Shown here: one piece after another, positions 2,219-28,314 of the stretch | Layout of the letters: each line of letters opens with the position of its first letter | How positions within the stretch are numbered: the first letter of the stretch is position 1 | NCBI GenBank assembly: GCA_011526105.1 | Contig: WYAZ01000031.1 | Coordinates: 131,796-195,795 of the forward strand | Reading direction: 5' to 3' | Length of the DNA: 64,000 nt | Source: Deltaproteobacteria bacterium | GTDB taxonomy: Bacteria > Myxococcota > Kuafuiibacteriia > Kuafuiibacteriales > Kuafuiibacteriaceae | Translations under genes and position numbers: made by a program | The notes under the pieces: model-generated | What the model was told of the DNA's origin: nothing | What the model saw: the letters and a program-made list of their open reading frames with translations, nothing else | Databases searched by the model: none

Positions 2219-5200
2219 TTAGAAGAGGGAGCCGAGCTGAAAGAACGGGCCGCTTGCGTCGATCACGTCGCGGTCTTCTCCTCCAGGGACTCGGAGGAGG
2301 TGCGCATAACCTACGCGCACCTGCAGCCCGAGCGCATGGCCCAAGAGAAGATCGGCTCTCAGTTCCGCTCCGGCGCCGATGGCGAAAGCGTCGAAGAAGC
2401 CGTCAAACAGGGTGCTGGCCTCGAGGGTCTGAAAGACACGCCCGGTGTCCGCGAACAGTGCGGCATGGAACGCGCGAATGGCGAGAGGGGCGGTCCCGAA
2501 GCCCCGCTCCACGCGCCAGATGGGCGCGCGATACTCGAGAGAAGCATGGATGACCCCGAGACCAGCCAGGATGGAGTTCTGCATCCCGCGCAGTCCGAAG
2601 AAGTTCTGAGTCGTGGTCGTGAGGGCGCTCTGGCCGGCGGCTCCGCCGAGTCGGAAGAGCTCTACGAGGTCTGGCCCGAGCCCAGCGGAGATCGAAAGAC
2701 TCGCCGCAAGGACGTGATTGGGCAGCAGCGAAGCCGGCATGCTCAAATAGCCGCGCGCGTCGCCGCCGAGCACGATCTGTTCATAGTCGCTGCCGAGGCC
2801 CTTGGAGAGCCCCGAGATCGCGAACGAGAGCTCATAGCCGCGTTCGATGGAGATCGAGTGCGCGAAGGCCCGCACGTTCGAGTAGGAGTAGCCCAGCCGT
2901 ACGCGCGCGAAGCGGCCATCCGCCGGCAGACGGGCCGCGGCCTCGTAGACGTCGTCCGGGACTTCGTTGAGCGCCGAGCGACCCTCGATCTGATACCCGA
3001 GCGAGATCAGATGGCGCCGCCGAAAAGGCAACGAGACACTCAAACTGCCCAGCAGTCGAAGTTCGGTGTAGTCGAAGAGCCGGTTTCCTTCTGTGTCGCG
3101 AAGCACGAACAAGCGGGTGTCGGCGTCGCCGCCGATGGTGAAGGTCGGCTCGAAGGCATCGTTCTGATAGATCGCGCCGCCTCCGAAGAAGTTGGTCGAG
3201 GTGCGGTAGGTGCCCCAGACGAGGTAGGTCTGGGTCTCGAGCGCGTCGCGGCCGAAGTGGCTGAGGCGGATGAAGAGCTCGGTCTCGTCCGCGCTCATCT
3301 CGGGGATCAGATTCCAGTTGTCGTTGAAGGGCAGCAGCGTGCTCTCGACCGAGTACTCGCCCATCGTCCAGCCTTCGGGCAGCTCGAACGGCGCGGGGAC
3401 CGGGTGATCCTTGAAAGGCGCCGGCGGTGGCTTTTCCGGAAGCCCGAGGGAGAGTGCGGGCCAGCGCCTGGGTTTGTCGTCGAGGCCTTCCTCCGGGAGC
3501 AAGACACGCTCGATCTGGATCCCTCGCTCCGGTTCAAAGGGCACGCGATACACGTCGAAGCCGTCCGCGGAATAGCCTCGAAACACGATGGTGCGACCGT
3601 CCGGTGAGATGGAGGGTTGATAGGCCCCGGTCATCAGGTTGGTGAGTTGGAGCAGTCGCTGGGATTCGAGTTCGAAGGCGTAGAGGTTGTAGATCCCGGT
3701 TCGGTCGGAGGCAAAGACGAGCCAGCGCCCATCCGGCGACCAGGTGGGGTCCACGTCTTGAGCGCGATCGCGCGTGATGGTCTCGACGAGCGCGCCCTCG
3801 CGGTCGTAGATCACGACGTCGCGGCGGCCGGTACGAAACCGCGAAACGGCGATGCTTCGCCCGTCCGGCGAGAAACGTGGGTTCGAGAGCTGAACGTCCG
3901 GCTCGGCGGGCACGATGACCCTTGGGTGCAAGGTGAGGCCGTCTGACCCGAGGCGCGCGAGCACCAATCGATTGGCCGCGTAGGGCGTCTGCACGAACAC
4001 GATCGAGGTTCCGCTAGGCGACACGTCCGGATCACGCGCCCTCAGAGAGCCGGAGGGAGCCAAGAATTCCTTCTCGTAGCGCTCATCGAGCCTCAAGAGC
4101 TCGGTCTCCTCCTTCTTCAGGTCATATCGCAAGAGGCTGTTATGGAAGTAGAAGCGCTGATTGATCTCGGTCTGCTGGTAGTAGAAGGCGCTTCCGTCGG
4201 GCGTAAACGACAGCGCCTTCGAGAAGGTGTCATTGACGAGCACGGTGTCGTTTCCGCCATCGAGGTCGATGCGCCGAATCCGCGGTCCGTCTTTGGGGGA
4301 GTTCGTGGAGAAGAAGATGTGCTTGCCGTCTTTGGATATCTTCGGTCCCAGCAGATCTCCGCCGTATCGGGTCAGGCGGTCGGGGATGGTCTCGGCCAAT
4401 GTTGACGAGCGAACGAGCCGCTGTGTGAGCAGCGCGTCTTCCTTCATCTCCGCTTCGAAGGTGAGCCACAAGGCCTCGAAGGTGTCGTCGAAGGCCATGA
4501 AGGCCGCCCACCAGGTGAGGTACGGGACCGGGGTCTCGGCGTAGATGCGGTGGTACCGCATCAGCGCCTCCTCTCCGAAGCGATAGGCGAGCCAGGCTTG
4601 AAACCGCCCGCCAATGAAGTACGCCACGTTCGAGAACGGCCAATACGCGTAGGCGCGATAGCCCTGGTCGATGTGTGGGAAGCGGTCCTCGAGCGCGGCG
4701 ACGCGGATGACCATGTCGGCGTACGCTGAACGTCCGCGGCCCGCGCCGGAGCTGTAGGTCTCCTCGTAGACGGCGAGCCCTTCGGACAGCCACGCGGGGG
4801 TGTACTGGTTGAGCGCGATGTACTTGCCGAAGATGAATCGGCCGATCACCGGGAGCCCAAACACCATGTCCAGATGGACGATATGTGCGAGCTCATGGTC
4901 GATGACCGAGTAGAGCCAGTCGTCGTAGTCTTCGAGTCCGGAGACCTCGGTGGGGGCGGTGACATAGATCGTGATGATCTTGTTCGGAAAGACCGTCGCC
5001 GTCCCGTTGGCAAAATCGTTCTGGTCGTCGACGACGATTGTGATGCGTCCTTGGGGCCGGTAACCGAAGCGCGCGACCATGCCTGGGAGGAGCGACTCTG
5101 CGATGGCGGCCGAGCGCAGCGCGATGTGCTCATAACCCTTCGCGTGGACCACGTAGAAGTTCGGACTGGTCACGGCGCGATAAGGCACGTCCGGGTCGTA

Positions 5201-5281
5201 GCTGCCGGCGGCCCGTCCATCCCGAGGGGCGAACGAGAGTATGAGCGCAGCGACCGCGAGGGCTTTCGAGAGATCTCTCAT
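2219..5281 (-). CDS. Large outer-membrane protein: zincin-like HExxH domain + TolB-like PD40 beta-propeller + C-terminal Omp85/surface-antigen-like beta-barrel (start re-placed to ATG 5281, MRDLSKALAVAALILSF... signal peptide)
   Basis: HELAHIVHLD metal-binding motif; repeated SPDG(R/T)... PD40 motifs; C-terminal alternating hydrophobic strands ending in ...GSLF; signal peptide at chosen start; upstream 49 codons of track ORF are Arg/Pro-rich junk. Confidence 0.6.
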   Translation of the reverse strand: MRDLSKALAVAALILSFAPRDGRAAGSYDPDVPYRAVTSPNFYVVHAKGYEHIALRSAAIAESLLPGMVARFGYRPQGRITIVVDDQNDFANGTATVFPNKIITIYVTAPTEVSGLEDYDDWLYSVIDHELAHIVHLDMVFGLPVIGRFIFGKYIALNQYTPAWLSEGLAVYEETYSSGAGRGRSAYADMVIRVAALEDRFPHIDQGYRAYAYWPFSNVAYFIGGRFQAWLAYRFGEEALMRYHRIYAETPVPYLTWWAAFMAFDDTFEALWLTFEAEMKEDALLTQRLVRSSTLAETIPDRLTRYGGDLLGPKISKDGKHIFFSTNSPKDGPRIRRIDLDGGNDTVLVNDTFSKALSFTPDGSAFYYQQTEINQRFYFHNSLLRYDLKKEETELLRLDERYEKEFLAPSGSLRARDPDVSPSGTSIVFVQTPYAANRLVLARLGSDGLTLHPRVIVPAEPDVQLSNPRFSPDGRSIAVSRFRTGRRDVVIYDREGALVETITRDRAQDVDPTWSPDGRWLVFASDRTGIYNLYAFELESQRLLQLTNLMTGAYQPSISPDGRTIVFRGYSADGFDVYRVPFEPERGIQIERVLLPEEGLDDKPRRWPALSLGLPEKPPPAPFKDHPVPAPFELPEGWTMGEYSVESTLLPFNDNWNLIPEMSADETELFIRLSHFGRDALETQTYLVWGTYRTSTNFFGGGAIYQNDAFEPTFTIGGDADTRLFVLRDTEGNRLFDYTELRLLGSLSVSLPFRRRHLISLGYQIEGRSALNEVPDDVYEAAARLPADGRFARVRLGYSYSNVRAFAHSISIERGYELSFAISGLSKGLGSDYEQIVLGGDARGYLSMPASLLPNHVLAASLSISAGLGPDLVELFRLGGAAGQSALTTTTQNFFGLRGMQNSILAGLGVIHASLEYRAPIWRVERGFGTAPLAIRAFHAALFADTGRVFQTLEASTLFDGFFDAFAIGAGAELRADLLLGHALGLQVRVGYAHLLRVPGGEDRDVIDASGPFFQLGSLF

Positions 5282-5877
5282 CGAGCTGGACGCGAGGCGG
5301 ACTGGATCTCTCGGAGGAGGCGTTCGATGTCGGGCGCGGACCCCGCGCCGGCCGCGGTGCGAAAGCGGGCATTTTGTCTCGGAGGGTCGGTCACCGCGAC
5401 ACATAGGTGCTCGGCTTCGATGACACACGCCGCCGCTTTGGCGCCGGTGAGCCGCCGGAGCTCATCGGCTACGGACTGCGTAAGGGCCTCTTGCAGCACG
5501 AGCCGGTGGGCGAGCACGTCCACCAGCTTCGCGATGTTGCCAAAGCCGGGCACCATGCCCTTCGGGAGGATCGCGACGTGCGCGTGTCCTTTCATCGGCA
5601 GAAGGTGATGCGGACACGTGGACACGAGCGGAATGTCCGCCACGAGGAGTGGTCCCGACTGCTTGGTCGCGAAAAGGCGGCCGAGCGCCTCGGTGGGATC
5701 CGCATGATGCCCCGCCGTGAGCACATCGATCCACGCCGCTGCGGCCCGAGCCGGGGTGCCAACAAAGTTCTCGTCCGCCCGGTCGACGCCCAGCGCATCG
5801 AGAAGCTCCTCTATGGCCCGCTCCGCCCTTGGCCGATCGGGGCTGGGGCGTATCTTGGATCTGGAACGCCGAGCCAC
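5278..5877 (-). CDS. folE: GTP cyclohydrolase I
   Basis: 199 aa; STCPHHLLP...HAHV motif region matching FolE active site (CEHH-type), size correct. Confidence 0.85.
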   Translation of the reverse strand: MARRSRSKIRPSPDRPRAERAIEELLDALGVDRADENFVGTPARAAAAWIDVLTAGHHADPTEALGRLFATKQSGPLLVADIPLVSTCPHHLLPMKGHAHVAILPKGMVPGFGNIAKLVDVLAHRLVLQEALTQSVADELRRLTGAKAAACVIEAEHLCVAVTDPPRQNARFRTAAGAGSAPDIERLLREIQSASRPAR

Positions 5878-6052
5878 CGACGGAGGACACCATCGCCTTT
5901 CCCCGATGAGGTCAAGGCCCTGCCGCCGCCTCCAGGAGGGCTCAGGGGCTGCAATGGCCCGATATCATCCCCAGATCCTGGTGCCTTCGAAATCCCCAGC
6001 GAGACCCGGCCGTTGACAGAGCGGGTCGCGGCCCCTACTTCAGAGACCAGGC

Positions 6053-6718
6053 TTGGAAAGAAACCGCGTGAAACCCAACCAGCCTCACACTCCCTCCAGC
6101 ACTCCCCCCACCGTGCTTCGCTACGCCGAAGCGGTGGTTCCGACCATCCACGGGGATGTTCGATTGGTGGTCTTCAGGGAGCGCGGCTCCGAGGATCCCC
6201 ACGCCATCGAGCACGTCGCGATGGTCTTCGGCGAACCCGCCAAAGCCTCCGGCGCCGTCCTCGCGCGCGTCCACAGCGAGTGCATCACTTCGGAGGTCTT
6301 TGGCTCACTCAAGTGCGACTGCCGGGACCAGCTCCTCGAGGCGATCATTCGCATCCAAGAGGTTGGCCACGGCGTCATCTGCTACCTCCGCCAAGAGGGA
6401 CGGGGCATTGGGCTGGGAAACAAGATCCGCGCCTATGCACTGCAAGCTCAAGGGCTCGACACCATCGAGGCCAACCTTCACCTCGGCTTCGACGTCGATC
6501 TTCGGCGTTACGATGTTGCGGCGGACATGCTGAAGGACTTGGGGGTGCGAGCGGTCCGGCTGCTCACCAACAACCCGGAGAAGCTCGCCGGGCTTGCGGA
6601 AGCCGGGATTCAGGTCGTCGGGCGCGAGTCGATTGAGATCGAGCCCAATCGGCACTCCGAGAGCTATCTGTCCACCAAGCAGAAGCTCATGGGGCATCTC
6701 CTGGCGCTCGCTTCTTGA
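6053..6718 (+). CDS. ribA: GTP cyclohydrolase II
   Basis: 221 aa; RVHSECITSEVFGSLKCDCRDQL zinc-site motif, YLRQEGRGIGL, KIRAYALQ motifs typical of RibA. Confidence 0.85.
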   Translation: MERNRVKPNQPHTPSSTPPTVLRYAEAVVPTIHGDVRLVVFRERGSEDPHAIEHVAMVFGEPAKASGAVLARVHSECITSEVFGSLKCDCRDQLLEAIIRIQEVGHGVICYLRQEGRGIGLGNKIRAYALQAQGLDTIEANLHLGFDVDLRRYDVAADMLKDLGVRAVRLLTNNPEKLAGLAEAGIQVVGRESIEIEPNRHSESYLSTKQKLMGHLLALAS

Positions 6719-6726
6719 GTCTGGTC

Positions 6727-7446
6727 TCAGGCCTGGCCCGAACCCACACCCCAGCCCGGTATCGCGCCGCTGTCGTCCTCGCCGCCCCCTTGCTGCAAGA
6801 GCAGCGCGCCGAGCACGCCGTTGACGATTTCGATGCGCTTCGCTGGATCGGGCTCAGCGAGGATGCGTCGTCGGTCGTCCGGTTCTTGAACCGCCGCCAC
6901 CGCGATGGTGTCGGCCAAGACTCCGGCTTCGTCGATCTCGTTGATGCGCGAGAGCAGCTCTTCGTTGCCATCCCCGAGACTCACCACCACCCGCGTGCAG
7001 AGGCTCCTCAGGCCCGACATGGCGCGTGAGAGCTCCGGTGCGGAGGTTTCGGTGTGGTCGAGGATGAGCTCCGTCTTCACCCGACGGTAGGGGATGTCGA
7101 GCTGTGGCTGGAACTCCTCCACGACGCGCAAGCGACCGCAGCCCGCGATGAGCAGATCGAAGCGTCCGTCCGGGTAGCGTGTGGACCTCTGGATGAGACC
7201 GAGGCCGGCGTGGTCGAAGATCGAAGGCCGCCCGTGTGCATCCGGCGGCAGGCGCTCGTCGAGTGCCCCGAGCGCGATGAGCTCATGACCTTCGAGCGCG
7301 TCCTCGACCATTCGGCGATACCGGGGTTCGAAGATGTGAATGGGAAGGTACACGCCAGGGAGCAGCAGGATGTTCGACAGCGGAAAGAGCGGGACAGCAT
7401 TCAAGGCCTCGACCGGCACCGCGCGGTAGGTATCACTCACGGACAC
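6727..7446 (-). CDS. LON N-terminal (substrate-binding) domain protein
   Basis: 239 aa; PLFPLSNILLLPGVYLPIHIFEPRYRRMV is the Lon N-domain signature; no ATPase/protease domain. Confidence 0.7.
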   Translation of the reverse strand: MSVSDTYRAVPVEALNAVPLFPLSNILLLPGVYLPIHIFEPRYRRMVEDALEGHELIALGALDERLPPDAHGRPSIFDHAGLGLIQRSTRYPDGRFDLLIAGCGRLRVVEEFQPQLDIPYRRVKTELILDHTETSAPELSRAMSGLRSLCTRVVVSLGDGNEELLSRINEIDEAGVLADTIAVAAVQEPDDRRRILAEPDPAKRIEIVNGVLGALLLQQGGGEDDSGAIPGWGVGSGQA

Positions 7447-8842
7447 CTCGAGACGGGAAGATCTTTCCGGGGTTCAAGATGCCGGCCGGATCAAACACCT
7501 TCTTCACGTTCTTCTGGAGCGCGATCAGCGGCTCGGAGTGCTCGAGGGAGAGGAACTCGCGCTTGGTGAGCCCGACCCCATGCTCGCCGGAGATCGTTCC
7601 GCCCAAAGAGACGGTGAGGCTCATGATCTCGTGCACGGCCTGGTCCGCGCGCTCCTGTGCGTCTTCGTCGAACAAGATGTTCACGTGCAGGTTGCCGTCT
7701 CCGGCGTGCCCATAGGTGGCGAGCCCGAGCTTGTGCTTCTCTCCAATTCGCTTCGCGCCGTCGAGCATGGCGGGGATCCTTGAGCGAGGCACGACGATGT
7801 CTTCAGAGATCTTGCGCGGCGCAGTTTCGGAGAGCGTGACGGACAGCATGCGGCGTGGTTCCCACATCTTCTCGCGCTGCGCCGCGTCTTGGGCGACGAG
7901 CACGTCGATGGCGCCGTGCTCGGTGCACACGAGGGCGGCGCGTTCGAGATCCTCCATGCTTCGTTCGACGCTCGTTCCGTCTGTCTCCAGAATCAAGAGT
8001 GCGCCTGCATTCTCGGGGAAGCGCCCAGGGGTTTTCTCCCGCAGCGCCCCCAGGGCGTAGTCGTCGAGGAACTCGAGCGTCCGCGGGATCACACCGGCGG
8101 CGAAGATGGCGGTGATGGCGGACCCAGCCCGGCCGAGATCAGGAAAGCTGACGAGCGCGGTGGTCACCGCGGCCGGATTCGGGATGAGCCGGGTGGTGAT
8201 CTCCGTGATGACGCCGAGTGTTCCCTCGGAGCCGACCATCAGGGCGGTGAGGTCGTAGCCGGTGACGTGCTTCAGAGTACCCTTGCCGAAACGAAGGACC
8301 TCGCCGGTGGGGATGACCACCTCGACCGCCAGCACGTAGTTCTTGGTGACGCCGTACTTGAGCGCACGAGGTCCGCCCGCGTTGCAGGCCACGTTGCCGC
8401 CGAGGGAGCAGATCTTCAGGCTGTTTGGATCCGGCGGATAGAACAGACCTTCGGCCTCGACGTTCCGCATGAAGGTCTCGGTGATGATGCCGGGCTCGGC
8501 GACCGCAATCATGTCGGTCTTCGAGACGTCCTTCATCCGGGTCATGCGCTCCATCGACAGAACGATGCCACCCTGCACCGGCACCGATCCGCCCGACTTG
8601 CCGGTGCCGAGCCCACGCGGCGTGACCGGGACGCCATGTGCGGTCGCGGCGCGAAAGACCGCTTGAACGTCCGCGACGCCTTCGGCGCGCACGACGAGGT
8701 CGGGCATGGAGGGGGTCGAGAACGACCAGTCCTGGCCATAAGGGCTGAAGAGGTCGGGATCATCGATGAGCTTCGAGGGTCCGAGCGCGGCGGCGAGCAT
8801 TCGTTTGCAGGCGTCGATGGAGGCTGAAGACGGCCGGTTCAT
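7433..8842 (-). CDS. FAD-linked oxidase (GlcD / D-lactate dehydrogenase family); start re-placed to ATG 8842 (MNRPSSASIDACKRML...)
   Basis: FAD_binding_4 motifs (RGLGTGKSGGSVP..., C-terminal GGTISGEHGVGLTKREFL); overlaps neighbours by 4 and 14 bp (operon). Confidence 0.8.
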   Translation of the reverse strand: MNRPSSASIDACKRMLAAALGPSKLIDDPDLFSPYGQDWSFSTPSMPDLVVRAEGVADVQAVFRAATAHGVPVTPRGLGTGKSGGSVPVQGGIVLSMERMTRMKDVSKTDMIAVAEPGIITETFMRNVEAEGLFYPPDPNSLKICSLGGNVACNAGGPRALKYGVTKNYVLAVEVVIPTGEVLRFGKGTLKHVTGYDLTALMVGSEGTLGVITEITTRLIPNPAAVTTALVSFPDLGRAGSAITAIFAAGVIPRTLEFLDDYALGALREKTPGRFPENAGALLILETDGTSVERSMEDLERAALVCTEHGAIDVLVAQDAAQREKMWEPRRMLSVTLSETAPRKISEDIVVPRSRIPAMLDGAKRIGEKHKLGLATYGHAGDGNLHVNILFDEDAQERADQAVHEIMSLTVSLGGTISGEHGVGLTKREFLSLEHSEPLIALQKNVKKVFDPAGILNPGKIFPSRGVRE

Positions 8843-9189
8843 CGGGCGTGCTTCCTGCCGCCGCGCGGAAGCTGCAGGATCTCGAGGCCCGAGGTCGCCT
8901 GCACCTGACATGCACGACCCACGATCGACTCCCCGGCTGCGTCCGCGCGGTATTCCATCTCACAGCAGCCCTTGGTGTTGTTCCAACAGTAGCGCCCCCA
9001 GTCCATTCGGACCGAGTTCTCTTTCAATTCGAGATACTGCAGGCACCGGAGGACGCTGTTGTTCTCGGGGACATAGGCCGGCTCGCCCTCCACCCAGATC
9101 GGGAGGAGCATCTGATAGGCGCCGTAGAGGTTCAGGTCATCCGAACTATGGGTTCCGGAAAAAGGGATGGGTTCTCGCTTCTCGGTCAT
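8839..9189 (-). CDS. Small Cys-containing hypothetical protein (116 aa) from ATG 9189 (MTEKREPIPFSG...)
   Basis: ORF with CWNNTKGCCEMEY Cys cluster; begins immediately after stop of upstream cytochrome gene and overlaps downstream oxidase start by 4 bp; no family recognised. Confidence 0.4.
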   Translation of the reverse strand: MTEKREPIPFSGTHSSDDLNLYGAYQMLLPIWVEGEPAYVPENNSVLRCLQYLELKENSVRMDWGRYCWNNTKGCCEMEYRADAAGESIVGRACQVQATSGLEILQLPRGGRKHAR

Positions 9190-9190
9190 C

Positions 9191-10066
9191 CTACTCTTGG
9201 TCAGCCCAGGTGCGCTCAGTCTCTTCGCGATCGTACATGGTCGCGCTCTCCATGGCCACGAGGTAGACCGGGAACACATCGGCCGCGAGGTCCGACATCA
9301 CCTTGCCGCCGGCCACCTTGAAGGGGTCCTTCTGGCCTTTGCGCCCGAGTCCGGCGAATCGGGAGAGCGACTTGTTCAGAAGCTCGGTCTTCTGATCGAC
9401 CTCGTGGACCGCGAGCTTGGTGATGACGCCGTCCTTGTCCATGGCGATGCCGAGCTCGCCTTCGAATCCAGGCGTCTTCCAGGGCACAAAGACGAGGTAG
9501 CCGCTCTTCTTGTCCTTCTTGAGCTCGTCGAGACGGATGGGATCATCGGGGACGTAGCTGAGGTTTCCTTCTTCGCCTTCGAAGTCAAAGAAGGTGAAGA
9601 CGGCGGCCTTGGTCTGCTTCGCGGCTTTCCCGGTGGCGGCCTTGATGCGTTCGAGACCGAACTTGTCGATCGCGTACTCCTTGGCCACGTAGCGAGAGGC
9701 ATCTGGGAAGAAGGTTTGAATCACGAGGTGCTGCCCCCGCACGTGCTGCACCACGTCCCAGAGCTGAAGGAACGGGAGCTGCCTTTTGAACTGATGCTCA
9801 CTCGGCTTCTTCAGCCCCTTGCCGGTCTCGATCATGTCGAAGAGCTGCTCGTTGCGGAGGAGGTTGAGGCGCCCGGAGTCGCGGAGCGAGACCGCGATCT
9901 TGCCGCCATCGGCCTGTGCGCCATGGCAGGCCGCGCACTCCTTGGCGTAGAGCTTCTGACCGCTGGCAGGGTCACCCACAAGGAGCGGAAGCTCCTCTGC
10001 GATGGCGAGAGAGCTGAAGAGGAGCATTGGAAGGAGAGCGGGTAGCGCGAGCTTCATCTCGATCAC
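9191..10066 (-). CDS. c-type cytochrome (mono-haem CxxCH) with signal peptide
   Basis: 291 aa; N-terminal signal MIEMKLALPALLPMLLFSSLAIA, class-I cytochrome c motif KECAACHG; long C-terminal extension. Confidence 0.7.
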   Translation of the reverse strand: MIEMKLALPALLPMLLFSSLAIAEELPLLVGDPASGQKLYAKECAACHGAQADGGKIAVSLRDSGRLNLLRNEQLFDMIETGKGLKKPSEHQFKRQLPFLQLWDVVQHVRGQHLVIQTFFPDASRYVAKEYAIDKFGLERIKAATGKAAKQTKAAVFTFFDFEGEEGNLSYVPDDPIRLDELKKDKKSGYLVFVPWKTPGFEGELGIAMDKDGVITKLAVHEVDQKTELLNKSLSRFAGLGRKGQKDPFKVAGGKVMSDLAADVFPVYLVAMESATMYDREETERTWADQE

Positions 10067-10067
10067 C

Positions 10068-10658
10068 TCAGTTGCCCTTCACCGGGCGGCGTCCACCGCC
10101 GGTGGTCTTGGTTTTCTCGCTCATCATGTCATCCGGGAGCGGCCAGATGTTCACCGGGAAACGCATGGTCCCTTCGAAGGTCTTTCCTTCTCGGATGCGA
10201 CCCTTGATGGTGAGCCCGAGCATGCCGTCCTGCGGCGGGGTGATGTGCAGGCCGAACTTCCCGGCAGACATCGGGATCTCGTGCGCGAGGTACCGGGCTA
10301 CGACATCTCCGACCGGGTTTTTGAGCTCCACCACGACTCGGGCGCCGGTCACGGGGACCGCGGTGCCGTAGCGAGGGTGCGGCGTCTTCGGCACTTCGTT
10401 GATGGTCAGGATCAGCTCTGTTCGTTCCTCGGCGTTCGGCACGCCCGGCGCGAAGCGGGCGCTGATGTCGAACTTGCTCCCCTTGGAGCCCTCGACCTGC
10501 AGTGTGTCGCCGCGTTCGAGCGGGCGTGGCAGAGGCTTGGGCGTGGGCACCGGCTCTGCGGCTGGAGCTGGAGCAGGTTCCTGCGCGTGGGTCGTGCTGA
10601 CGAACAGGGTGGTGATGAGCCAGGCGGAGAGCAACGAAGAGAGGGAGAGCTTATTCAC
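10068..10658 (-). CDS. Secreted hypothetical protein
   Basis: 196 aa; cleavable signal peptide (…TLFVSTTHAQE); Pro-rich linker; no recognisable family; 2-bp spacing to cytochrome gene. Confidence 0.5.
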   Translation of the reverse strand: MNKLSLSSLLSAWLITTLFVSTTHAQEPAPAPAAEPVPTPKPLPRPLERGDTLQVEGSKGSKFDISARFAPGVPNAEERTELILTINEVPKTPHPRYGTAVPVTGARVVVELKNPVGDVVARYLAHEIPMSAGKFGLHITPPQDGMLGLTIKGRIREGKTFEGTMRFPVNIWPLPDDMMSEKTKTTGGGRRPVKGN

Positions 10659-11589
10659 AGCGGCCTCGTTCCTTTTCGATGTCGAGGTGGAAGTCGATCA
10701 TGTCTTTGGTGCGGGGGAGGCCGAAGCGGCGTCCGTCGATGAAGACCGTGGGCGTGGATTCGATCTGAGCGCTCAGTCCGAGCTGCTTGTCCGCCTGCAC
10801 CTTCGCCCTGTGGGTTCGGGCGTCGAGCGCAGCTTTGGCCTTCTTCGTGTCCATGCCCGCCTTCGCGGCGAAGTCGATCATCGTCTCCGGGCGGATGTCC
10901 CGCTGGTTCTCGAAAAGAAGCTCCGCGAGCTCCCAGAACTTGCCTTGGAGTCTAGCCTCCTCGGCGAGCTCCGCTGCGAGATGGGAGGGCTCGTCACTCG
11001 ACCCGAGCGGGAATGCGAAGAACACGAGGCGCGTGTCTGTTCGTCCGGCGATGGTCCGGTCGAGGACCGGCTTCATGGCTCGGCAGTGCGCGCAGCGGAA
11101 GTCGGCAAACTCGACGATGGTGTGTTGTGCCGTCTCTGGTCCGATCGATGCGTGATCCTTCACATCGAAGCTACGAACCGCCGAGCTGTAGCCTTCCGCG
11201 AAGCCTTCGAGCAGCGTGAGTTCGACTTCCTCGGTGGAGACGCCGGATCGGTAGAGATCGAGGATGAGGTGCGTCATCTTCTCGGAGCATCCGACGCAGG
11301 AGCAGGCCTCTTTGTTCGAGAGGCAGGAAGCGAGGGTGCGCGGGCAGCCGCAGTAGCAGAAGGTCTCGTTCATGATCCGCCAGAAATCGAGGCGGACCGC
11401 ACCCGGAAGGCTGTCGGCCGAGACGCCTTCGATCTCCGTGATCGCGGGTGCTTGCACCGCGGCTTCCGGTGGGGCTGGGTTCTCCTCGAGCGGCTTCGGG
11501 CTGGGAGCGGTCTCCGTCTTGCCCCGACAGGTCGCACCCGTCGCCGCGAGGGCCGTCAGGAGCACGAAGAGGGCGGGGTGGGTGCGCAT
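10651..11589 (-). CDS. DsbA-family thiol:disulfide oxidoreductase with N-terminal Cys-rich domain (start re-placed to ATG 11589, MRTHPALFVLL...)
   Basis: Thioredoxin-fold CxxC (FRCAHCRAM) with DsbA-like surrounding sequence; extra FCYCGCPRTLASCLSNKEACSCVGC cluster; signal/lipoprotein-like N-terminus. Confidence 0.7.
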   Translation of the reverse strand: MRTHPALFVLLTALAATGATCRGKTETAPSPKPLEENPAPPEAAVQAPAITEIEGVSADSLPGAVRLDFWRIMNETFCYCGCPRTLASCLSNKEACSCVGCSEKMTHLILDLYRSGVSTEEVELTLLEGFAEGYSSAVRSFDVKDHASIGPETAQHTIVEFADFRCAHCRAMKPVLDRTIAGRTDTRLVFFAFPLGSSDEPSHLAAELAEEARLQGKFWELAELLFENQRDIRPETMIDFAAKAGMDTKKAKAALDARTHRAKVQADKQLGLSAQIESTPTVFIDGRRFGLPRTKDMIDFHLDIEKERGRCE

Positions 11590-11743
11590 TCCGGCGACAC
11601 TGCTAGCCATTGGGCGAGAAGGCGGTCAATCACGGATCTCACGTACTTAGGGTTTGTACGCGCAGATCTGGGCATGTCCAGGGGGTGCCTGCTTGTGGCT
11701 TGAGGACTAGGGTTCCAGTAGGATCCGAGGTCGACCGGCCTAG

Positions 11744-12697
11744 ATGCAAGACGAGCAAGAACAGAACTTCGCGAGCTTCGAGGACGGAGACTATGTCGAG
11801 AACACCACGGAAGCAGTGGGATTCGTTCCGCTCGAGCCGCTGGAGTCCGCGAAGCGAACCGCCGCCTTTGTCGTGATCAGCGGGCGGGCCTTCGGTCAGA
11901 GTTTCACCCTCGGTGACAGCGAATGCACCATCGGGCGCGGGATGGAGTGCAACATCCGCCTCGATGACGAAGGCATTTCGCGCCGCCATGTGAAGGTCGT
12001 CCACACCGAAGGCCACTGGGTCATGATGGATCTGGCCTCCACCAACGGGACCTATCACGGCGGCGAACGCATCCAGGTCATGACGCTCTATGACGGTGCG
12101 AAGGTTCAGCTCGGCATGAGCACCGTCCTGCGGTTTCAGCATCAAGACGTCATGGACGAGCGATTCGTCCGGTCAATGTACGAGTCCAAGACGCGCGACG
12201 CGCTCACCGAGACTTACAATAAGGCTTACTTCCTCGAGTCGATCGAGCGCGAAGTCGCTTTCGCGCTTCGGCATCAGCAAGACCTGACCTTGGTCATGTT
12301 CGATCTCGATCACTTCAAGAAGGTCAACGATACCTTCGGGCACCAAGCGGGCGACTTGACCCTGAAGATGGTCGCGAAGGCGGTGACGAAGTGCATTCGC
12401 CGCGAGGATATCCTCGCCCGCTACGGCGGTGAGGAGTTCGCGCTGCTGCTTCGGAACACGCACCCGGAGAAGGGCTTCATCCTCGCGGAGCGTATCCGAC
12501 GGGCGGTCGAGCGGCTCGAGATCGTTCACGAAGGCCGACGGATACCTTGCACCGTGTCCTTGGGCATCGAATCCACGCTCAACGGCTTTCGAGAAGCGGG
12601 CACTTTGATCGAGGCCGCCGATTCGCAGCTCTATCGCGCCAAGCATGGGGGTCGAAACCGCACCGAAGCACCGCTCTTCGAAGAGGGCGATCGTTAG
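11744..12697 (+). CDS. FHA domain - GGDEF diguanylate cyclase (GGEEF active-site motif)
   Basis: 317 aa; FHA signature (GR...RRHV...NGT) then GGDEF domain with RYGGEEF and DxLT motifs. Confidence 0.85.
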   Translation: MQDEQEQNFASFEDGDYVENTTEAVGFVPLEPLESAKRTAAFVVISGRAFGQSFTLGDSECTIGRGMECNIRLDDEGISRRHVKVVHTEGHWVMMDLASTNGTYHGGERIQVMTLYDGAKVQLGMSTVLRFQHQDVMDERFVRSMYESKTRDALTETYNKAYFLESIEREVAFALRHQQDLTLVMFDLDHFKKVNDTFGHQAGDLTLKMVAKAVTKCIRREDILARYGGEEFALLLRNTHPEKGFILAERIRRAVERLEIVHEGRRIPCTVSLGIESTLNGFREAGTLIEAADSQLYRAKHGGRNRTEAPLFEEGDR

Positions 12698-12858
12698 AGC
12701 TCATCTCAAAACCCCCGACCGAGCGAGACGGCCAAGACGCGAGGCCCGCAAGGCGGGCCGACGAATGCGCTATCCTGCGATAACGCGAGGAGGCCCAGCA
12801 CGGCGGGCCGACGCGGATCGGCCGGAATCGCGACCGAGGGGGTTTTGAGATAAGCTCT
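12698..12858. repeat. 161-bp structured intergenic element: 19-nt terminal inverted repeats (12698-12716 AGCTCATCTCAAAACCCCC / 12838-12856 GGGGGTTTTGAGATAAGCT, 18/19) enclosing two GC hairpin-containing ~23-nt direct repeats (12741-12763, 12789-12812)
   Basis: Read directly: arms are reverse complements; inner GAGGCCCGCAAGGCGGGCCGACG and GAGGCCCAGCACGGCGGGCCGACG each form a GC stem; GACCGAG abuts both arms internally. Confidence 0.55.
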
Positions 12859-12899
12859 AGAGGCGTTCGAGGCCATCACACGCCAGAGCGCACCCCGCC

Positions 12900-14636
12900 G
12901 TGATCTCGATTCGCACTGATTCCGGGGAAGAGCAGCTCACGCTCGCGGAGTTCGAAGCCCGCGTCCGATCCGGCCGCATCGTGGCCACCACTCAGGTCTG
13001 CTTCTCAATTCTCACCGGCGATCGTTGGGTCGACGCGAAGGAGATAGAGCTCTTCCGGCAGCTCTACCAGCCGGCACGCATCTACTTCACGCGGCGCTTC
13101 TCCCTTCGCGGCTTTCCACTCGTGACTGCGCTTCTCGTTGTTCTTCAGATCCTGCTGTTCTTCGGTGTGGCGGGGGCCCGGCACGCGGTCGATCTCGACC
13201 CGCTCATCGCCTCCGGCGCCAAAGTACGTTCGAACATCCTCGAACTCGGAGAGACATGGCGGCTCCTCACCGCGAATCTGCTCCACCGGGACCTCCTGCA
13301 TCTGTTCTTCAACATGTTCTTTTTCCTCAACGTCGGAGGCACGGTCGAGGCGGCCTACCGCAGACAGGATTACGTGCTCCTGCTCGTGCTCAGCGGGCTG
13401 TCCACGACGGTGGTGTCCACCCTGTTTGGCTCCCTGCCTTCGGTGGGCGCGAGCGGCGTGGTCTTGGGGCTGTTCGGCGCGGTCTCTGTGTTCGGCTACA
13501 AGTACGCGGATGTTCTTCCGCGTCGATACAAGAACTTCTTCCTCTTCGCGGTCCTGCCGTATGCGATCTTCGTTCTCTACATCGGGATCTTCACCGCAGA
13601 CACGGACAACTGGGGTCATCTCGGCGGACTCCTCGGTGGCTCCATGGTTGCGGTTCTGCTCGAGCCCAAGCTGATGCACCTCGCTCGGGCGGAGAAGCGG
13701 TACTTCCGCGCCCACTGGCCAGCGCTCGCCACGGTGTGTCTGGTGGGACTCACGCTCGCCGCGGGTCCGGTGGTCCGAGGCCTGGAGCCTCGCCTCGCCA
13801 TCCTGTCGGATGGCGACAGTGGACTTCTCGTGGCCTATCCATCGGGTTGGCGCTTCGGAGAGAACCACCTGGGCTATCCGGCCTGGGGCAACACGCTCGG
13901 CGTCACCTTTGGCGTGCGGGCCCGACGCCACTCAAACGCGCCGGTGTCACTGTCGGAACTGAGGCGTCTCTTTATCGAAGAGGAGCTCGCCGGCCCTGAA
14001 CGCGCCGGCGAGATCACGGGTGTCGAGCTGGTTCGGGAGCGCGCGGTGCGAATCGAAGGGGCTCGAGCGCTCGAACTCACCGTTGCCCTCGAGTCCCGCG
14101 CGGGGCGCCATCGGAGCACAAACCTTCTGCTCGCCCGCGGCTACTACAGCTACTTCATCGTGGCCTCCGCCCCGGTGGCTTGGGCGGAGTCGTACGAGCC
14201 CATGCTTCGAGGGCTCGTGGATCGTGCCCGGCTCATCGATACAAATCGGCTGACGCGAAGCCGCGAGCTCGTACGTGCGTTTCCGGGCATGTCGAGCGCG
14301 CGGGTGGAGCTTGCGGGTGAGCTTGCGCAACTGGGTCGCGTCGAGGAGGCTCGGTCCGCCTATCTGGAGGCGCTCGAAACCTTGCCCGAACATCCAGACG
14401 CGCTCTACGGCTTGGCTCGACTCGCTCGCGACTACGGAGGTGATGTCGAAGAAGCCGAGGCGTTGGCCACTCGGCTCCTCGAACGCAGGCCCGAGAGCCC
14501 GGAGGTCGCCGTGCTGGTGGCGGACCTGCGCGCTCGGCTCGGTCAGTTTGCGCGCGCCCGAGCCGTGCTCGAGGAGGCTCTCGAACGCTCGCCGGACTCC
14601 GCCGAGCTCCGGCAGCGTCTATCGACTCTCCGCTGA
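12900..14636 (+). CDS. Rhomboid-family intramembrane serine protease fused to C-terminal TPR repeats (GTG start)
   Basis: 578 aa; 6-7 TM core with GASGVVLGLFGA (GxSG catalytic Ser) and downstream His in TM helix; C-terminal Ala/Leu-rich TPR-like repeats. Confidence 0.75.
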   Translation: MISIRTDSGEEQLTLAEFEARVRSGRIVATTQVCFSILTGDRWVDAKEIELFRQLYQPARIYFTRRFSLRGFPLVTALLVVLQILLFFGVAGARHAVDLDPLIASGAKVRSNILELGETWRLLTANLLHRDLLHLFFNMFFFLNVGGTVEAAYRRQDYVLLLVLSGLSTTVVSTLFGSLPSVGASGVVLGLFGAVSVFGYKYADVLPRRYKNFFLFAVLPYAIFVLYIGIFTADTDNWGHLGGLLGGSMVAVLLEPKLMHLARAEKRYFRAHWPALATVCLVGLTLAAGPVVRGLEPRLAILSDGDSGLLVAYPSGWRFGENHLGYPAWGNTLGVTFGVRARRHSNAPVSLSELRRLFIEEELAGPERAGEITGVELVRERAVRIEGARALELTVALESRAGRHRSTNLLLARGYYSYFIVASAPVAWAESYEPMLRGLVDRARLIDTNRLTRSRELVRAFPGMSSARVELAGELAQLGRVEEARSAYLEALETLPEHPDALYGLARLARDYGGDVEEAEALATRLLERRPESPEVAVLVADLRARLGQFARARAVLEEALERSPDSAELRQRLSTLR

Positions 14637-14641
14637 GTGGC

Positions 14642-15640
14642 TCATTTCGACGGGTCGGTGGGGCGCTCGGGCGGGATCGAGACCCGAAGCGTGTCGAGTT
14701 CGTCTCCGCGCTTGGGATGAGCATGGGATGAGCCCGCTTGGAACGCAGTGGCCCGGTCTCGACCCGCGAGCTTGCTGTGATAGAGCGCGGAGTCGGCTCG
14801 AACAAAGAGCTCCATGGGGCCCGCGTCCGGGTTGTCGACCTCCAGCTCGGCGACCCCAATGCTGAAGCTCAGCGTATGACGCCGGTCGTTCACGGTGATC
14901 GGATGATTCCGGACGCTCTCGACGATGCGCTGCGCGAACCTGAGCACGAGATCGATAGACTCCCCACGGCAGATGATCACGAACTCGTCGCCCGCGTAGC
15001 GAGCGACCACGTCCTCTCTGCGCTTGGCACGTTCGAGCAGGCGAGCGACGCTCTTCAGGACCTCGTCCCCGACCGGGTGACCGTAAGTGTCGTTGATCGA
15101 CTTGAAGCCGTCGACGTCGATGAGCATGAGGGCCAGCGGCGTCTTGTGCCGACGGGAAAAAGAGATCTCCTGATCGAGCCGCTGCATCAGGTACCGCCGG
15201 TTGGCGAGCTCGGTGAGCGGGTCGCTCATGGCAGCCATGCGCATCTGGTGAATCAGCTCGGTCTCGTTCACGTCCTCGAAGCGCACTCGGATCACGGTCT
15301 CACCCGAGAGTTGAATCCGCTGACCGTCTTGCAGACCTGAGACCTGGCGGGCTTGGCCCTCGACGTACATGCCATAGCCAGAGTCGAGGTCTCGAATCCG
15401 ATAGCCGCCCTCTGGATTACGTTCGATCACGGCGTGACGTCGCGACATGTACGGATCGCGGATCCGGAAATGCGATGCCTCTCCGCGTCCGACCGTCCCC
15501 CCGCTGGGCGGCACGCGATAGTAAAGGCCAGCGTCTGGTCCGGTCAGGACCATGATGGACAACACGTTGCGTTCGGGCAGCGCGGAGGGGCCGTCGTTGC
15601 TCGAGAAGGTGTCTTCATCGTCGAGGTAGCCCAAGGGCAC
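14642..15640 (-). CDS. FHA domain - GGDEF-like protein with degenerate AGDEF motif (paralogue of 11744..12697)
   Basis: 332 aa; FHA signature, GGDEF fold with RYAGDEF instead of GG(D/E)EF; I-site-like RxxD context present. Confidence 0.8.
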   Translation of the reverse strand: MPLGYLDDEDTFSSNDGPSALPERNVLSIMVLTGPDAGLYYRVPPSGGTVGRGEASHFRIRDPYMSRRHAVIERNPEGGYRIRDLDSGYGMYVEGQARQVSGLQDGQRIQLSGETVIRVRFEDVNETELIHQMRMAAMSDPLTELANRRYLMQRLDQEISFSRRHKTPLALMLIDVDGFKSINDTYGHPVGDEVLKSVARLLERAKRREDVVARYAGDEFVIICRGESIDLVLRFAQRIVESVRNHPITVNDRRHTLSFSIGVAELEVDNPDAGPMELFVRADSALYHSKLAGRDRATAFQAGSSHAHPKRGDELDTLRVSIPPERPTDPSK

Positions 15641-25932: not shown

Positions 25933-28314
25933 TCACGCTATCGAATAGCCGAGGTATCCGCGCGGCTCGGGTGGTCGCGCCCCCCTCGGAGGTGGGGCGA
26001 GCACGGCGGGGAGCACCTCGCTCATCTCGGACACGAACACGACCTCGATCGCGTCCCTCACCGAGTTCGGCAGCTCGTCGTAGTCCTCCGCGTTTCGTGC
26101 GGGGAGCACCACGCGCTTGATGCCGCGGGCGTGCGCGGCGAGGACCTTTGCCTTGATGCCGCCCACCGGCAGGACCCGGCCCCGCAGCGTCGCCTCGCCG
26201 GTCATCGCGACGTCATCACGAAGCCTCTGGCCAGACAGCAGGGAGGCGAGCGCGGCGAACATGGTGATGCCGGCCGAAGGGCCGTCCTTGGGCGTGGCCC
26301 CCGCGGGGACGTGCAAGTGAACGTCGCGATCCCGCAGGATGTCCTCTCGGATCCCGAGGCCCTTCGATTGCGCGAGTACGTAGGTGAGCGCGGCCTGCGC
26401 GGATTCCTTCATCACGTCGCCGAGCTGACCGGTGACGACGAGCTTGCCTTGACCGGGGACGAGGGAGGCCTCGACGTAGAGCACGTCTCCGCCGACCGGG
26501 GTCCAAGCCAGGCCGACCGCAACTCCGGGTTGGCTGGGGCCTTCGTGAGCGTCCTCGGTGAACTTCCGTCGGCCGAGCAGCTCCTTTAGGTCGCCCTTCT
26601 GCACTCGGAGTGGTGCATCGAGTTCCGAGCGCACCTTCTTTACGGCGGCCGCGCGAAACAGGCGGCCGAGCACTCGCTGGAGCTGACGCACGCCGGCCTC
26701 GCGCGTCCAGCCGGCGATGAGATCTTCGAGAGCGTCGTCGTCGAGCGCGAGGTCGTCGGGCGACAGCCCGGAGTTCTCCGCCAACTTCTTCCACACGTGT
26801 CCGCGGGCGATACCTCGCTTGTCCTCGCTGGTGTAGCCGTCGATCTGCAGAACCTGCATGCGGTCGCGGAGGGGGGCCGCGATCTCCGAAAGGTCATTTG
26901 CGGTCGCAATAAAGAGGGCCTTCGAGAGATCGAAGGGGAGCTCGAGATAGTGGTCGGTGAAGTTACTGTTCTGCTCTGGATCGAGGATCTCGAGGAGCGC
27001 CGCCGCAGGGTCGCCTTGCCACCCGCGTCCGAGCTTGTCGACCTCATCGAGCAGGACGACTGGATCCTGCACCGCCGCTCGACGAAAGCCCTCGAGGAGT
27101 CGGCCCGGCCGAGCCCCCACGTAGGTTCGACGGTGTCCTCGGAGCTCGGCTTCGTCGCGAACGCCGCCGAGCGCCACGCGCAGAAGCTTGCGTCCCGTGG
27201 CGTCCGCGATCGCCTGAGCGATGCTGGTCTTGCCCACCCCCGGCGGGCCCACGAGCAGGAGCACGTCCGCGCGTCCGCGACCCGAGAGCTTTCGCACCGC
27301 CATGTACTCCAGGACTTGGCGTTTGACTTCCTCGAGGCCCGAGTGCGTTTCGTTGAGCGTCTTCTCGATGGTGTCGAGGTCAATCTCGGTGGCGCTCGCT
27401 CGATTCCACGGGAGGTCGGCCACCCAGGTGAGCCAGTCGATGGTGACGGAGCGCTCGGGGGTGGTGCGACCGAGACGATCGAGGCGACGCAGCTCTTTGT
27501 CGACGGAGGCTTGAACCTCGGGCGGGAGGTCGCGAGCGACGAGGCGCGTACGAAGCTCGCCGAGGTCATCATCGTCACCTTCTCCGAGCTCCTGTTTGAT
27601 GGCCTCGAGCTGCTTGCGAAGCAACACCTCTCGGTTCTGGTCGTTGACGTCTGACATGACGCGGGCGCGAATGCTCTTCTGCGCGTCGATCAGATCCCGG
27701 ACCGCCTGAAGCTTCTTCAGGACCTTCTCTGCCCTCACGACCGGATCGAGCGTGAGCAGGATGTCCTTCTTCCACTCGTCGTCGTTCTCGAGCACCGCGG
27801 CCAGCATGTCGAGCAGCACGCCCTCGTCCTGGATCTGCGCGGCGATGCTCAGCATGGGAATGTTCTCCGCGAGGCCGCGAAGCTCCTCCAGCGTCCTTCG
27901 AAGCAGCGCCCGGGCGGCCTGTGCCTCGGGCCCATCCGGAAACTCGTCCGAGATGCGCTCATGACGAGCCCTGAGAAACGGCGTCTCGGTCTCGAACTCG
28001 AGGGAGACCCGGGTGATGCCCTGGATGAGCACGGACTTCACGTCCTTGTTCTCGGCCACGTCGCGCACGATCCGCGCGAGTGTCCCCACCGCGAGAAGAT
28101 TGTCGGGCGTCGGCGCTTGGGTGCCGTCCTTTTGGGCGGCGACGATGATGTAGCCCGTTGCGCGCGCTGCTTCGAGCGCGGCGAGGGATTGGCTGCGACC
28201 CACCGAGAAAGGCGTGGCGAGGCCCGGCAGCAGCACCCCGCTGCGCAGGGGCAGGACGGGGAGTTCGGAGGGCAGGCCCTCGGGAACATCGAAACTCAGC
28301 TCAAAATCGACCAC
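25933..28314 (-). CDS. lon: ATP-dependent Lon protease
   Basis: 793 aa; Lon N-domain, GPPGVGKTS Walker A, C-terminal DGPSAGITM catalytic Ser motif. Confidence 0.9.

Follow-up and report, generated by a model that had tools for sequence, protein, structure and literature searches.

Here we describe a compact block of six minus-strand genes (positions 6727-11589) in a 64,000-nucleotide stretch of DNA from a Deltaproteobacteria bacterium of the Myxococcota (contig WYAZ01000031.1; this whole stretch is hereafter called the window). The block is best read, with reasonable confidence, as a single probable transcription unit made up of two functionally separate modules. The first of these (module A) would be an exported three-protein unit, conserved well beyond the lineage, that comprises a DsbA-like lipoprotein, a 196-amino-acid (aa) immunoglobulin (Ig)-like protein, and a cytochrome c fused to a C-terminal domain that belongs to no curated family. 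The second (module B, 6727-9189) would be a cytoplasmic trio consisting of a mini-protein, a GlcD-like flavin adenine dinucleotide (FAD) enzyme and a stand-alone Lon N-terminal domain (Lon-N).

Our check of the open reading frames (ORFs) in the window returned six minus-strand genes with the same coordinates and junctions as those given in an earlier, sequence-only reading (the first-pass annotation), and its description of a tight six-gene operon stands. Module A is encoded by the DsbA-like lipoprotein gene (10651-11589 from an ATG start, within a longer ORF that extends to 11610), the gene for the exported, Cys-free 196-aa protein (10068-10658) and the cytochrome c fusion gene (9191-10057 from an ATG start, with a GTG alternative at 10066). 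Module B follows with the genes for the mini-protein (8839-9189; 116 aa), the GlcD-like enzyme (7433-8842) and Lon-N (6727-7446). The DsbA-like and 196-aa genes overlap by 8 base pairs (bp); a 1-bp gap separates the latter from the cytochrome gene (10 bp if the cytochrome starts at its ATG), and another 1-bp gap precedes the mini-protein gene, whose stop codon overlaps the GlcD-like start in a 4-bp ATGA. The GlcD-like and Lon-N genes overlap by 14 bp. Public gene calls on contigs encoding an identical cytochrome protein give the same product lengths (312, 196, 288 and 116 aa). Scans of positions 5000-13000 found no minus-strand terminator-like site and no sigma-70-like promoter match within the block, and no Rfam match anywhere in that interval. 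The six genes would very probably form one transcript in the source organism. Both small ORFs (8839-9189 and 10068-10658) can be taken as real genes because their homologues are conserved. The domains that had been proposed for the block (Thioredoxin_4 and DSBA, Cytochrome_CBB3, FAD_binding_4 with FAD-oxidase_C, and LON_substr_bdg) were all confirmed by Pfam, and the Cys motifs quoted earlier are present in the sequences.

The products of the block appear to reside in two different compartments. Inspection of the sequences revealed an export signal (signal peptide or lipobox) on only three of the six proteins, namely, the DsbA-like protein, the 196-aa protein and the cytochrome fusion, and none on the mini-protein, the GlcD-like enzyme or Lon-N. 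The label "periplasmic redox", which had been applied to all six genes, is therefore apt for the first three but not for the last three. No membrane-spanning electron conduit is encoded in the block.

That module A is a unit in its own right is suggested by its relatives outside the clade. An exhaustive search of 1.84 billion proteins with a profile of the C-terminal domain of the cytochrome fusion (the C-domain) retrieved only 104 representatives, 98 of them new. In 24 of these 98 new representative clusters, one polypeptide of 366-643 aa unites a 196-aa-like domain, a haem-bearing or haem-less cytochrome-like segment and the C-domain; the 196-aa-like domain comes first and is recognized by a hidden Markov model at E values down to 1e-25. 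These fusions argue strongly that the 196-aa protein acts together with the cytochrome/C-domain protein and, because the two are a single polypeptide in other lineages, they most likely form a complex. The DsbA-like gene also recurs in distant loci. In L104, a DsbA-like gene with the Cys-rich N-terminal domain described below (E=4e-10) overlaps the start of a fused protein, and in L105 such a gene (E=2e-14) is followed by a 196-aa-like gene and then by a cytochrome/C-domain gene. L108 carries the 196-aa-like gene followed by the cytochrome/C-domain gene, L107 has the fused protein alone, and in L009 and L018 only the C-domain protein is detectable. No GlcD, mini-protein or Lon-N gene was found in any of these six loci. 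In L107 (72-4143), the fused member lies beside a Cupredoxin_1 protein and faint YtkA and MopE copper-binding matches, the only copper-related context that we saw.

Within the clade, the picture is one of shared ancestry as much as of shared function. The gene order proved to be common to 13 Myxococcota genomes or contigs, so the earlier operon proposal does not founder on a lack of synteny. The order runs rhomboid-TPR (-), FHA-GGDEF (-), DsbA, 196-aa, cytochrome, (gap), mini, GlcD, Lon-N, (MshEN), RibA (-), FolE, HSP33 and PD40/Omp85-like. In the window, the block is bordered on one side by RibA (6053-6718) and on the other by an FHA-GGDEF gene (11744-12697), both on the plus strand. The flanking genes, which are unrelated to the block (rhomboid-TPR, FHA-GGDEF, RibA, FolE, HSP33 and PD40/Omp85-like), are as syntenic as the block itself, and it is for this reason that the conserved order cannot be credited to function alone. 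The DsbA-196-aa-cytochrome and mini-GlcD-Lon-N junctions are tight almost everywhere in the clade. The junction between cytochrome and mini-protein genes carries unrelated insertions of 1.1-2.1 kb in 5 of the 13 genomes or contigs. One of them pairs an opposite-strand TetR gene with a CN-hydrolase gene and another is an insertion sequence/transposase fragment; two hold an FAD amine-oxidase-like gene, accompanied in one case by a GNAT gene on the opposite strand, and the last holds a GT4 glycosyltransferase gene. The insertion site at this cytochrome/mini (GlcD) junction is a recurrent one (L013, 10873-12128; L011, 10862-12872; L017, 4610-6736; L020, 8076-9435). The mini-protein gene is absent from 4 of the 13 (L010, L014, L017 and L020), and in L010 the DsbA-like and Lon-N genes are missing as well.

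These findings bear most directly on the proposal, made in the first-pass annotation, that the block encodes one dedicated electron-transfer pathway. As we would phrase it, the cytoplasmic FAD dehydrogenase would oxidize a 2-hydroxyacid and pass the electrons, by way of a 2Fe-2S mini-protein, to the cytochrome and DsbA-like protein in the periplasm, with all six genes serving one substrate. Several observations are in keeping with such a scheme: the genes are joined by overlaps or 1-bp gaps without an internal terminator; their order is kept in 13 genomes or contigs although the orthologues are only 33-65% identical; the GlcD gene directly follows the cytochrome-like gene in L010 and L014; and FAD-dependent D-lactate dehydrogenases can reduce cytochrome c in vitro (PMC12724367). 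However, electron donor and acceptor would sit in different compartments with no conduit encoded between them, the unrelated flanks are equally syntenic, and unrelated genes (one of them on the opposite strand) interrupt the cytochrome/mini-protein junction. Moreover, neither GlcD nor the mini-protein nor Lon-N accompanies the exported module beyond the clade, and haem has been lost in L010, L016, L017 and L020 while GlcD has been retained. A single six-gene pathway is accordingly a reading that we consider improbable.

Turning to the components of module A, the DsbA-like protein would be a membrane-anchored thiol-disulfide oxidoreductase that carries an additional Cys-rich domain. Its thioredoxin domain (10699-11154; residues 153-304 of the 319-aa ORF) matches Thioredoxin_4 (PF13462) with 80.1 bits against a cut-off of 23.2 and DSBA (PF01323) with 59.3 bits against 25.6. 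The active site is CAHC in the window protein and CPHC, CGHC or CKHC in orthologues. Across 10 orthologues, a GATC(K/R)G lipobox-like signal, the CxHC site, the TP loop (an (S/G)TP motif corresponding to the cis-Pro loop) and a C-terminal Cys are all conserved. In its thioredoxin fold, CxHC site, cis-Pro loop, helical insert and lipoprotein-type export signal, the protein resembles DsbA and other Thioredoxin_4 oxidoreductases, including the Rcas_1661 family of thioredoxin-like (seleno)lipoproteins. Nevertheless, its Rcas_1661 match (E=3e-17) falls far under the equivalog cut-off, and it scores only 15.3 bits, against a cut-off of 279, with the E. coli-type DsbA equivalog NF008198. It further differs from both in its N-terminal Cys-rich domain and its conserved C-terminal Cys and, unlike in DsbA systems, there is no DsbB or VKOR partner near the window gene.

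The Cys-rich N-domain (11221-11379; FCYCGC...C...CSCVGC) has five Cys residues (C34, C36, C43, C50 and C52) that are invariant in alignment A3 in a CxC...C...CxC arrangement. The window protein scores 11.7 bits with PF13798 PCYCGC (cut-off, 25) and 18.2 bits (E=0.0019) with NF041379, the CYCXC (seleno)protein family (cut-off, 90). PF13798 was matched by 7 of the 10 orthologues (best E=0.0016), in every case under the curated cut-off, so on these profile scores we regard the domain as resembling the PCYCGC/CYCXC proteins rather than belonging to them. The likeness lies in the (F/Y)CYCGC motif, followed by further conserved Cys (as in PF13798, NF041379 and OS_HP4), and in the lipoprotein context, which has also been noted for a PCYCGC protein in Parageobacillus (PMC13068155). 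Selenoprotein forms of the PCYCGC/CYCXC family have been listed (PMC13188914), and a redox role is thereby implied. Whereas PCYCGC/CYCXC proteins stand alone, here the domain is fused to DsbA. A CcmH/NrfF-like identity, suspected from the motif spacing, was dropped when a profile search of the PDB returned nothing at E<=10 and Pfam pointed to PCYCGC instead.

The 196-aa protein has a signal peptide visible in its sequence and contains no Cys. Profile searches against Pfam and the PDB placed it in no Pfam family and gave only sub-threshold, chance-level matches to Filamin and YtkA; it is probably an Ig-like beta-sandwich. The gene adjoins the cytochrome gene in 12 genomes or contigs, where its products share 33-42% identity and 22 invariant columns. 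A word-based homologue search found only 6 close relatives, and the remote ones were reached through the loci and fusions described above. H126, H138 and E81 are invariant in the 196-aa proteins of the clade, and we considered a conserved His/Glu metal site on this basis; the idea was abandoned when these residues turned out not to be kept in the fused relatives.

The cytochrome fusion combines a class I mono-haem cytochrome c domain (9746-9973) with an extra domain of 180 aa. It matches Cytochrome_CBB3 with 35.2 bits (cut-off, 27) and contains a single CXXCH, the CAACH at residues 41-45. Full-length homologues form approximately 110 clusters, all of them from Myxococcota or from "Deltaproteobacteria" metagenome-assembled genomes. 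An AlphaFold2 model of the whole protein has a mean confidence (pLDDT) of 90.7, and the fold of the N-domain matches cytochromes c6 and kustc0563 with target-normalized template modelling (TM) scores of 0.7-0.8. In its single CXXCH, its fold and its Pfam match, the protein thus resembles class I cytochromes (c6, c55x and kustc0563). It differs from them in its extra domain, in the loss of the haem motif from several subclades and, above all, at the distal ligand position, where the MPxF-type Met is absent and the aligned residue is His88 (in EHQF). Among 121 CXXCH-bearing relatives, 86 have this His and 28 have the ancestral MP(A)F Met, which is retained only in deeper-branching relatives; none of 27 haem-less relatives has a His there. 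Because the residue at the ligand position covaries with CXXCH, His88 is the probable distal (sixth) haem ligand. Bis-His ligation generally goes with a low redox potential. Going by this alignment, the window cytochrome is probably bis-His and hence of low potential.

The relatives in which CXXCH has been lost retain a trace of it. In alignment A2, the haem-less members (P0098-P0121, P0154, P0165, P0170 and P0195) still show the first of the two Cys of the former CXXCH, and another Cys is found at a different place, in G(D/E)CVT in the separate-gene forms and in CxxxC(R/K) in the fused forms. This pattern suggests a disulfide or some other site in place of the haem, and the Cys pair could possibly be a substrate for the DsbA-like partner. 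A connection between loss of haem and loss of the mini-protein was also considered and rejected, as L016 is haem-less with a mini-protein gene and L014 has haem without one.

The C-domain (9194-9736) is the conserved core of the family. Profile searches gave no Pfam or PDB sequence match beyond chance level. A model of the C-domain alone (pLDDT, 92.1) had no fold match at E<=0.001; RnfG (best match, E=0.012, TM 0.39) and NqrC were the only recurring ones (7zc6_G, 8evu_C, 7xk3_C and 8ahx_G; TM 0.36-0.39, E of at least 0.012). RnfG and NqrC also face the periplasm and transfer electrons. Unlike them, the window C-domain has no FMN_bind match and no (S/T)GA(T/S) motif: Pfam FMN_bind matched none of 24 C-domain sequences at E<=10, inspection of alignments A2 and A5 did not reveal the ApbE flavinylation motif D-x-x-(S/T)-G-A-(T/S), and no ApbE gene is present among the called genes of any locus examined. 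We therefore rejected an RnfG-type C-domain with covalent flavin mononucleotide (FMN), although the weak similarity of fold remains. Given the absence of a sequence match, the weak fold match and the missing motif, the C-domain is best left unclassified, its topology being FMN_bind-like in a distant sense at most.

How might these parts work together? In our proposal, the functional core of module A would be the C-domain together with the Ig-like domain, and the haem domain would be an accessory, low-potential point of electron entry or exit that has been lost repeatedly. The DsbA-like lipoprotein would then exchange disulfides with, or be recycled through, the complex of the cytochrome/C-domain and Ig-like proteins, giving a periplasmic thiol/haem relay. 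Our confidence in this mechanism is low, because many members do without the haem and the core shows no evident cofactor. More broadly, module A may be a previously undescribed periplasmic redox system, with two domains that fall in no curated family, an obligate core complex, and a switch from His/Met to His/His ligation followed by repeated loss of haem; we put this forward tentatively, as a possibility that falls somewhat short of an even chance. As a description, module A would be a new variant of the periplasmic thiol/haem redox modules that rests on two unclassified domains, and the rest of the block would be ordinary.

Alternatively, module A could serve in the maturation or assembly of respiratory metalloenzymes, much as Sco/PCuAC/TlpA or YtkA do for CuA and CcmG/CcmH for cytochrome c, with the thioredoxin-fold and Ig-like proteins handling copper or the thiols of an apocytochrome. 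It is true that a CxxC thioredoxin-fold protein, an Ig-like periplasmic protein with two clade-invariant His residues and a cytochrome occur together here, and both the sub-threshold YtkA matches of the 196-aa protein and the cupredoxin, YtkA and MopE neighbourhood of L107 would fit. Against this, the fused relatives do not keep the His residues in question, Met- or Cys-rich copper motifs are absent (the 196-aa protein being Cys-free), oxidase and ccm genes adjoin the module in none of the loci examined, the profile of the Cys-rich N-domain has no CcmH match in the PDB, and the copper-related context is confined to one locus. A maturation role therefore seems to us doubtful, to about the same degree as the single pathway. 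Weaker still, and in our opinion very unlikely, is the view that the block is no functional unit at all, and that housekeeping genes with no relation to one another were packed together by chance in a gene-dense, high-GC genome; the synteny of the whole ca. 15-kb neighbourhood, unrelated genes included, speaks for it, but the 24 fused clusters contradict it for module A, the DsbA-like gene recurs beside its module partners in distant loci, and the mini/GlcD-like junctions are overlapping or tight in all but one of the eight mini-protein loci for which DNA was available.

Returning to the two-module reading that we favour, module B begins with the mini-protein, which is rare but clearly conserved: there are only 12 close clusters among 5.8 billion proteins, with lengths of 113-135 aa, identities of 51-91% and invariant Cys positions. 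Its Cys pattern is C68-x6-C75-C76-x17-C94, and the canonical Fer2_4 pattern (C-x10-C-x2-C-x13-C) is not followed; there is no Cys at the third ligand position and an adjacent CC pair is found instead. Nine of 16 members of the mini-protein family match Fer2_4 (PF13510; best E=2.3e-7), although the window protein itself does not, and the family profile aligns with the whole N-terminal 2Fe-2S domain of NDUFS1 (E=0.002). The mini-protein thus shares the Cys of ligands 1, 2 and 4 with the N-terminal [2Fe-2S] domain of NuoG/NDUFS1 and with small Fer2_4 subunits, such as HcnA, and differs from NuoG/NDUFS1 in its C-x6-CC-x17-C spacing and its third ligand; it probably binds 2Fe-2S. The junction with the GlcD-like gene is overlapping or tight in all eight mini-protein loci for which DNA was available, except L015 (ca. 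138-bp gap), and we suggest that the mini-protein would be translationally coupled to the GlcD-like dehydrogenase, plausibly as its electron acceptor. We know of no described arrangement in which a mini-type Fer2_4 protein is paired with a GlcD-family enzyme. Outside the clade, the mini-protein is most closely related to 98-aa Fer2_4 proteins (L004-L006) that show a canonical-like C-x4-C-x2-C pattern; their genes lie between glutaredoxin and rhodanese genes and not beside a GlcD-like gene.

The GlcD-like protein appears to be a cytoplasmic FAD-linked enzyme of the D-lactate/D-2-hydroxyacid dehydrogenase type. It scores over the cut-off for both FAD_binding_4 (PF01565; 125.8 bits) and FAD-oxidase_C (PF02913; 226.8 bits), and among solved structures it comes closest to 9qgz (E=1e-95), an enzyme described as an FAD-dependent D-lactate dehydrogenase (PMC12724367). 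It has the full-length architecture of the FAD D-lactate dehydrogenases and GlcD (PdG-D-LDH 9qgz, LctD 7qh2, LDHD and D2HGDH). Unlike in GlcD systems, it falls under the glcD equivalog cut-offs (416.7 bits against 567.9 for TIGR00387 and 329 against 897 for NF008408), and the block holds no GlcE, GlcF or electron-transfer flavoprotein gene; a search of the block and its flanks found no GlcE- or GlcF-like gene.

The last gene encodes a 239-aa protein in which Pfam found LON_substr_bdg (98.5 bits; cut-off, 28.7) and no AAA+ ATPase or S16 protease domain, in agreement with the first-pass annotation, which had called it a Lon N-domain only. It resembles Lon N-domains in general and, in particular, the stand-alone protein BPP1347 (PDB 1zbo), which likewise has ca. 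200-240 aa and LON_substr_bdg only; it differs from other stand-alone Lon-N proteins in that, in the window clade, its gene overlaps the stop codon of the GlcD-like gene. The same annotation had thought it odd that a Lon-N module should be attached to a redox operon. We examined 80 metagenomic loci encoding stand-alone Lon-N relatives, and GlcD lies upstream in none of the 46 other loci with enough upstream sequence. Because of this, and because the distant cytochrome relatives occur without Lon-N, we regard Lon-N as a neighbour in this lineage alone that stands outside the redox module; we see nothing to tie its function to the redox genes, and it follows GlcD only in this clade. Among 51 loci with sufficient flanking sequence, 8 have FolE or RibA within 3 kb of stand-alone Lon-N, and the window (5278-7446) shows this arrangement too; Lon-N often lies near FolE (GTP cyclohydrolase I) and/or RibA (II) in unrelated metagenomes (L022, L042, L045, L054, L059, L067, L072, L076, L087, L090 and L092). 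The Lon-N orthologues of the clade (alignment A6) end in a common tail, GWG(I/V)xxGxA, which the Pfam domain does not cover (6727-6760 in the window). A complete Lon protease of 793 aa (LON_substr_bdg, AAA+, Lon_lid and Lon_C) is encoded at 25933-28314 on the minus strand, ca. 18 kb from the Lon-N gene.

Several points weigh against our interpretation and should be set beside it. The GlcD gene lies downstream of the cytochrome gene in 13 of 13 clade members, with a junction of just 1 bp in the window, and some functional link between the two may exist after all. That several subclades have lost the haem argues against the idea that module A works at its core by haem-based electron transfer. 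Two His residues that are invariant in the 196-aa proteins of the clade are not kept in the fused relatives, and no metal site common to the family is evident in the alignments. In the model, the match of the C-domain to the RnfG/NqrC fold is weak (TM 0.39) and comes with no flavinylation motif. Finally, the mini-protein, as aligned, is without one of the canonical 2Fe-2S Cys ligand positions.

Two features of the surrounding DNA may be recorded here. Two FHA-GGDEF diguanylate cyclase paralogues flank the rhomboid-TPR gene (11744-12697, plus; 12900-14636, plus; 14642-15640, minus), and the first of them holds its place, with the rhomboid gene, upstream of the DsbA-like gene across the clade. 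On the other side, positions 2219-5428 (minus strand) encode a 1,069-aa PD40 beta-propeller protein that is part of the syntenic backbone; its orthologue in L001 (61% identity) has Tricorn and Omp85 Pfam matches.

The block illustrates how tight packing and conserved order need not amount to one pathway, and it was the comparison with distant genomes, together with the fusions, that separated a true three-gene module from neighbours kept only within the lineage. Module A would define two domain families that are as yet unclassified, one for the Ig-like domain of 196 aa and one for the C-domain of 180 aa. The module further offers a small, testable system in which a DsbA-like lipoprotein, with a Cys-rich domain of a kind shared with selenoproteins, is associated with a cytochrome whose haem ligation appears to have been changed and later lost. 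If module A is indeed a previously undescribed redox system of the kind tentatively put forward above, its core chemistry would reside in the unclassified C-domain rather than the haem.

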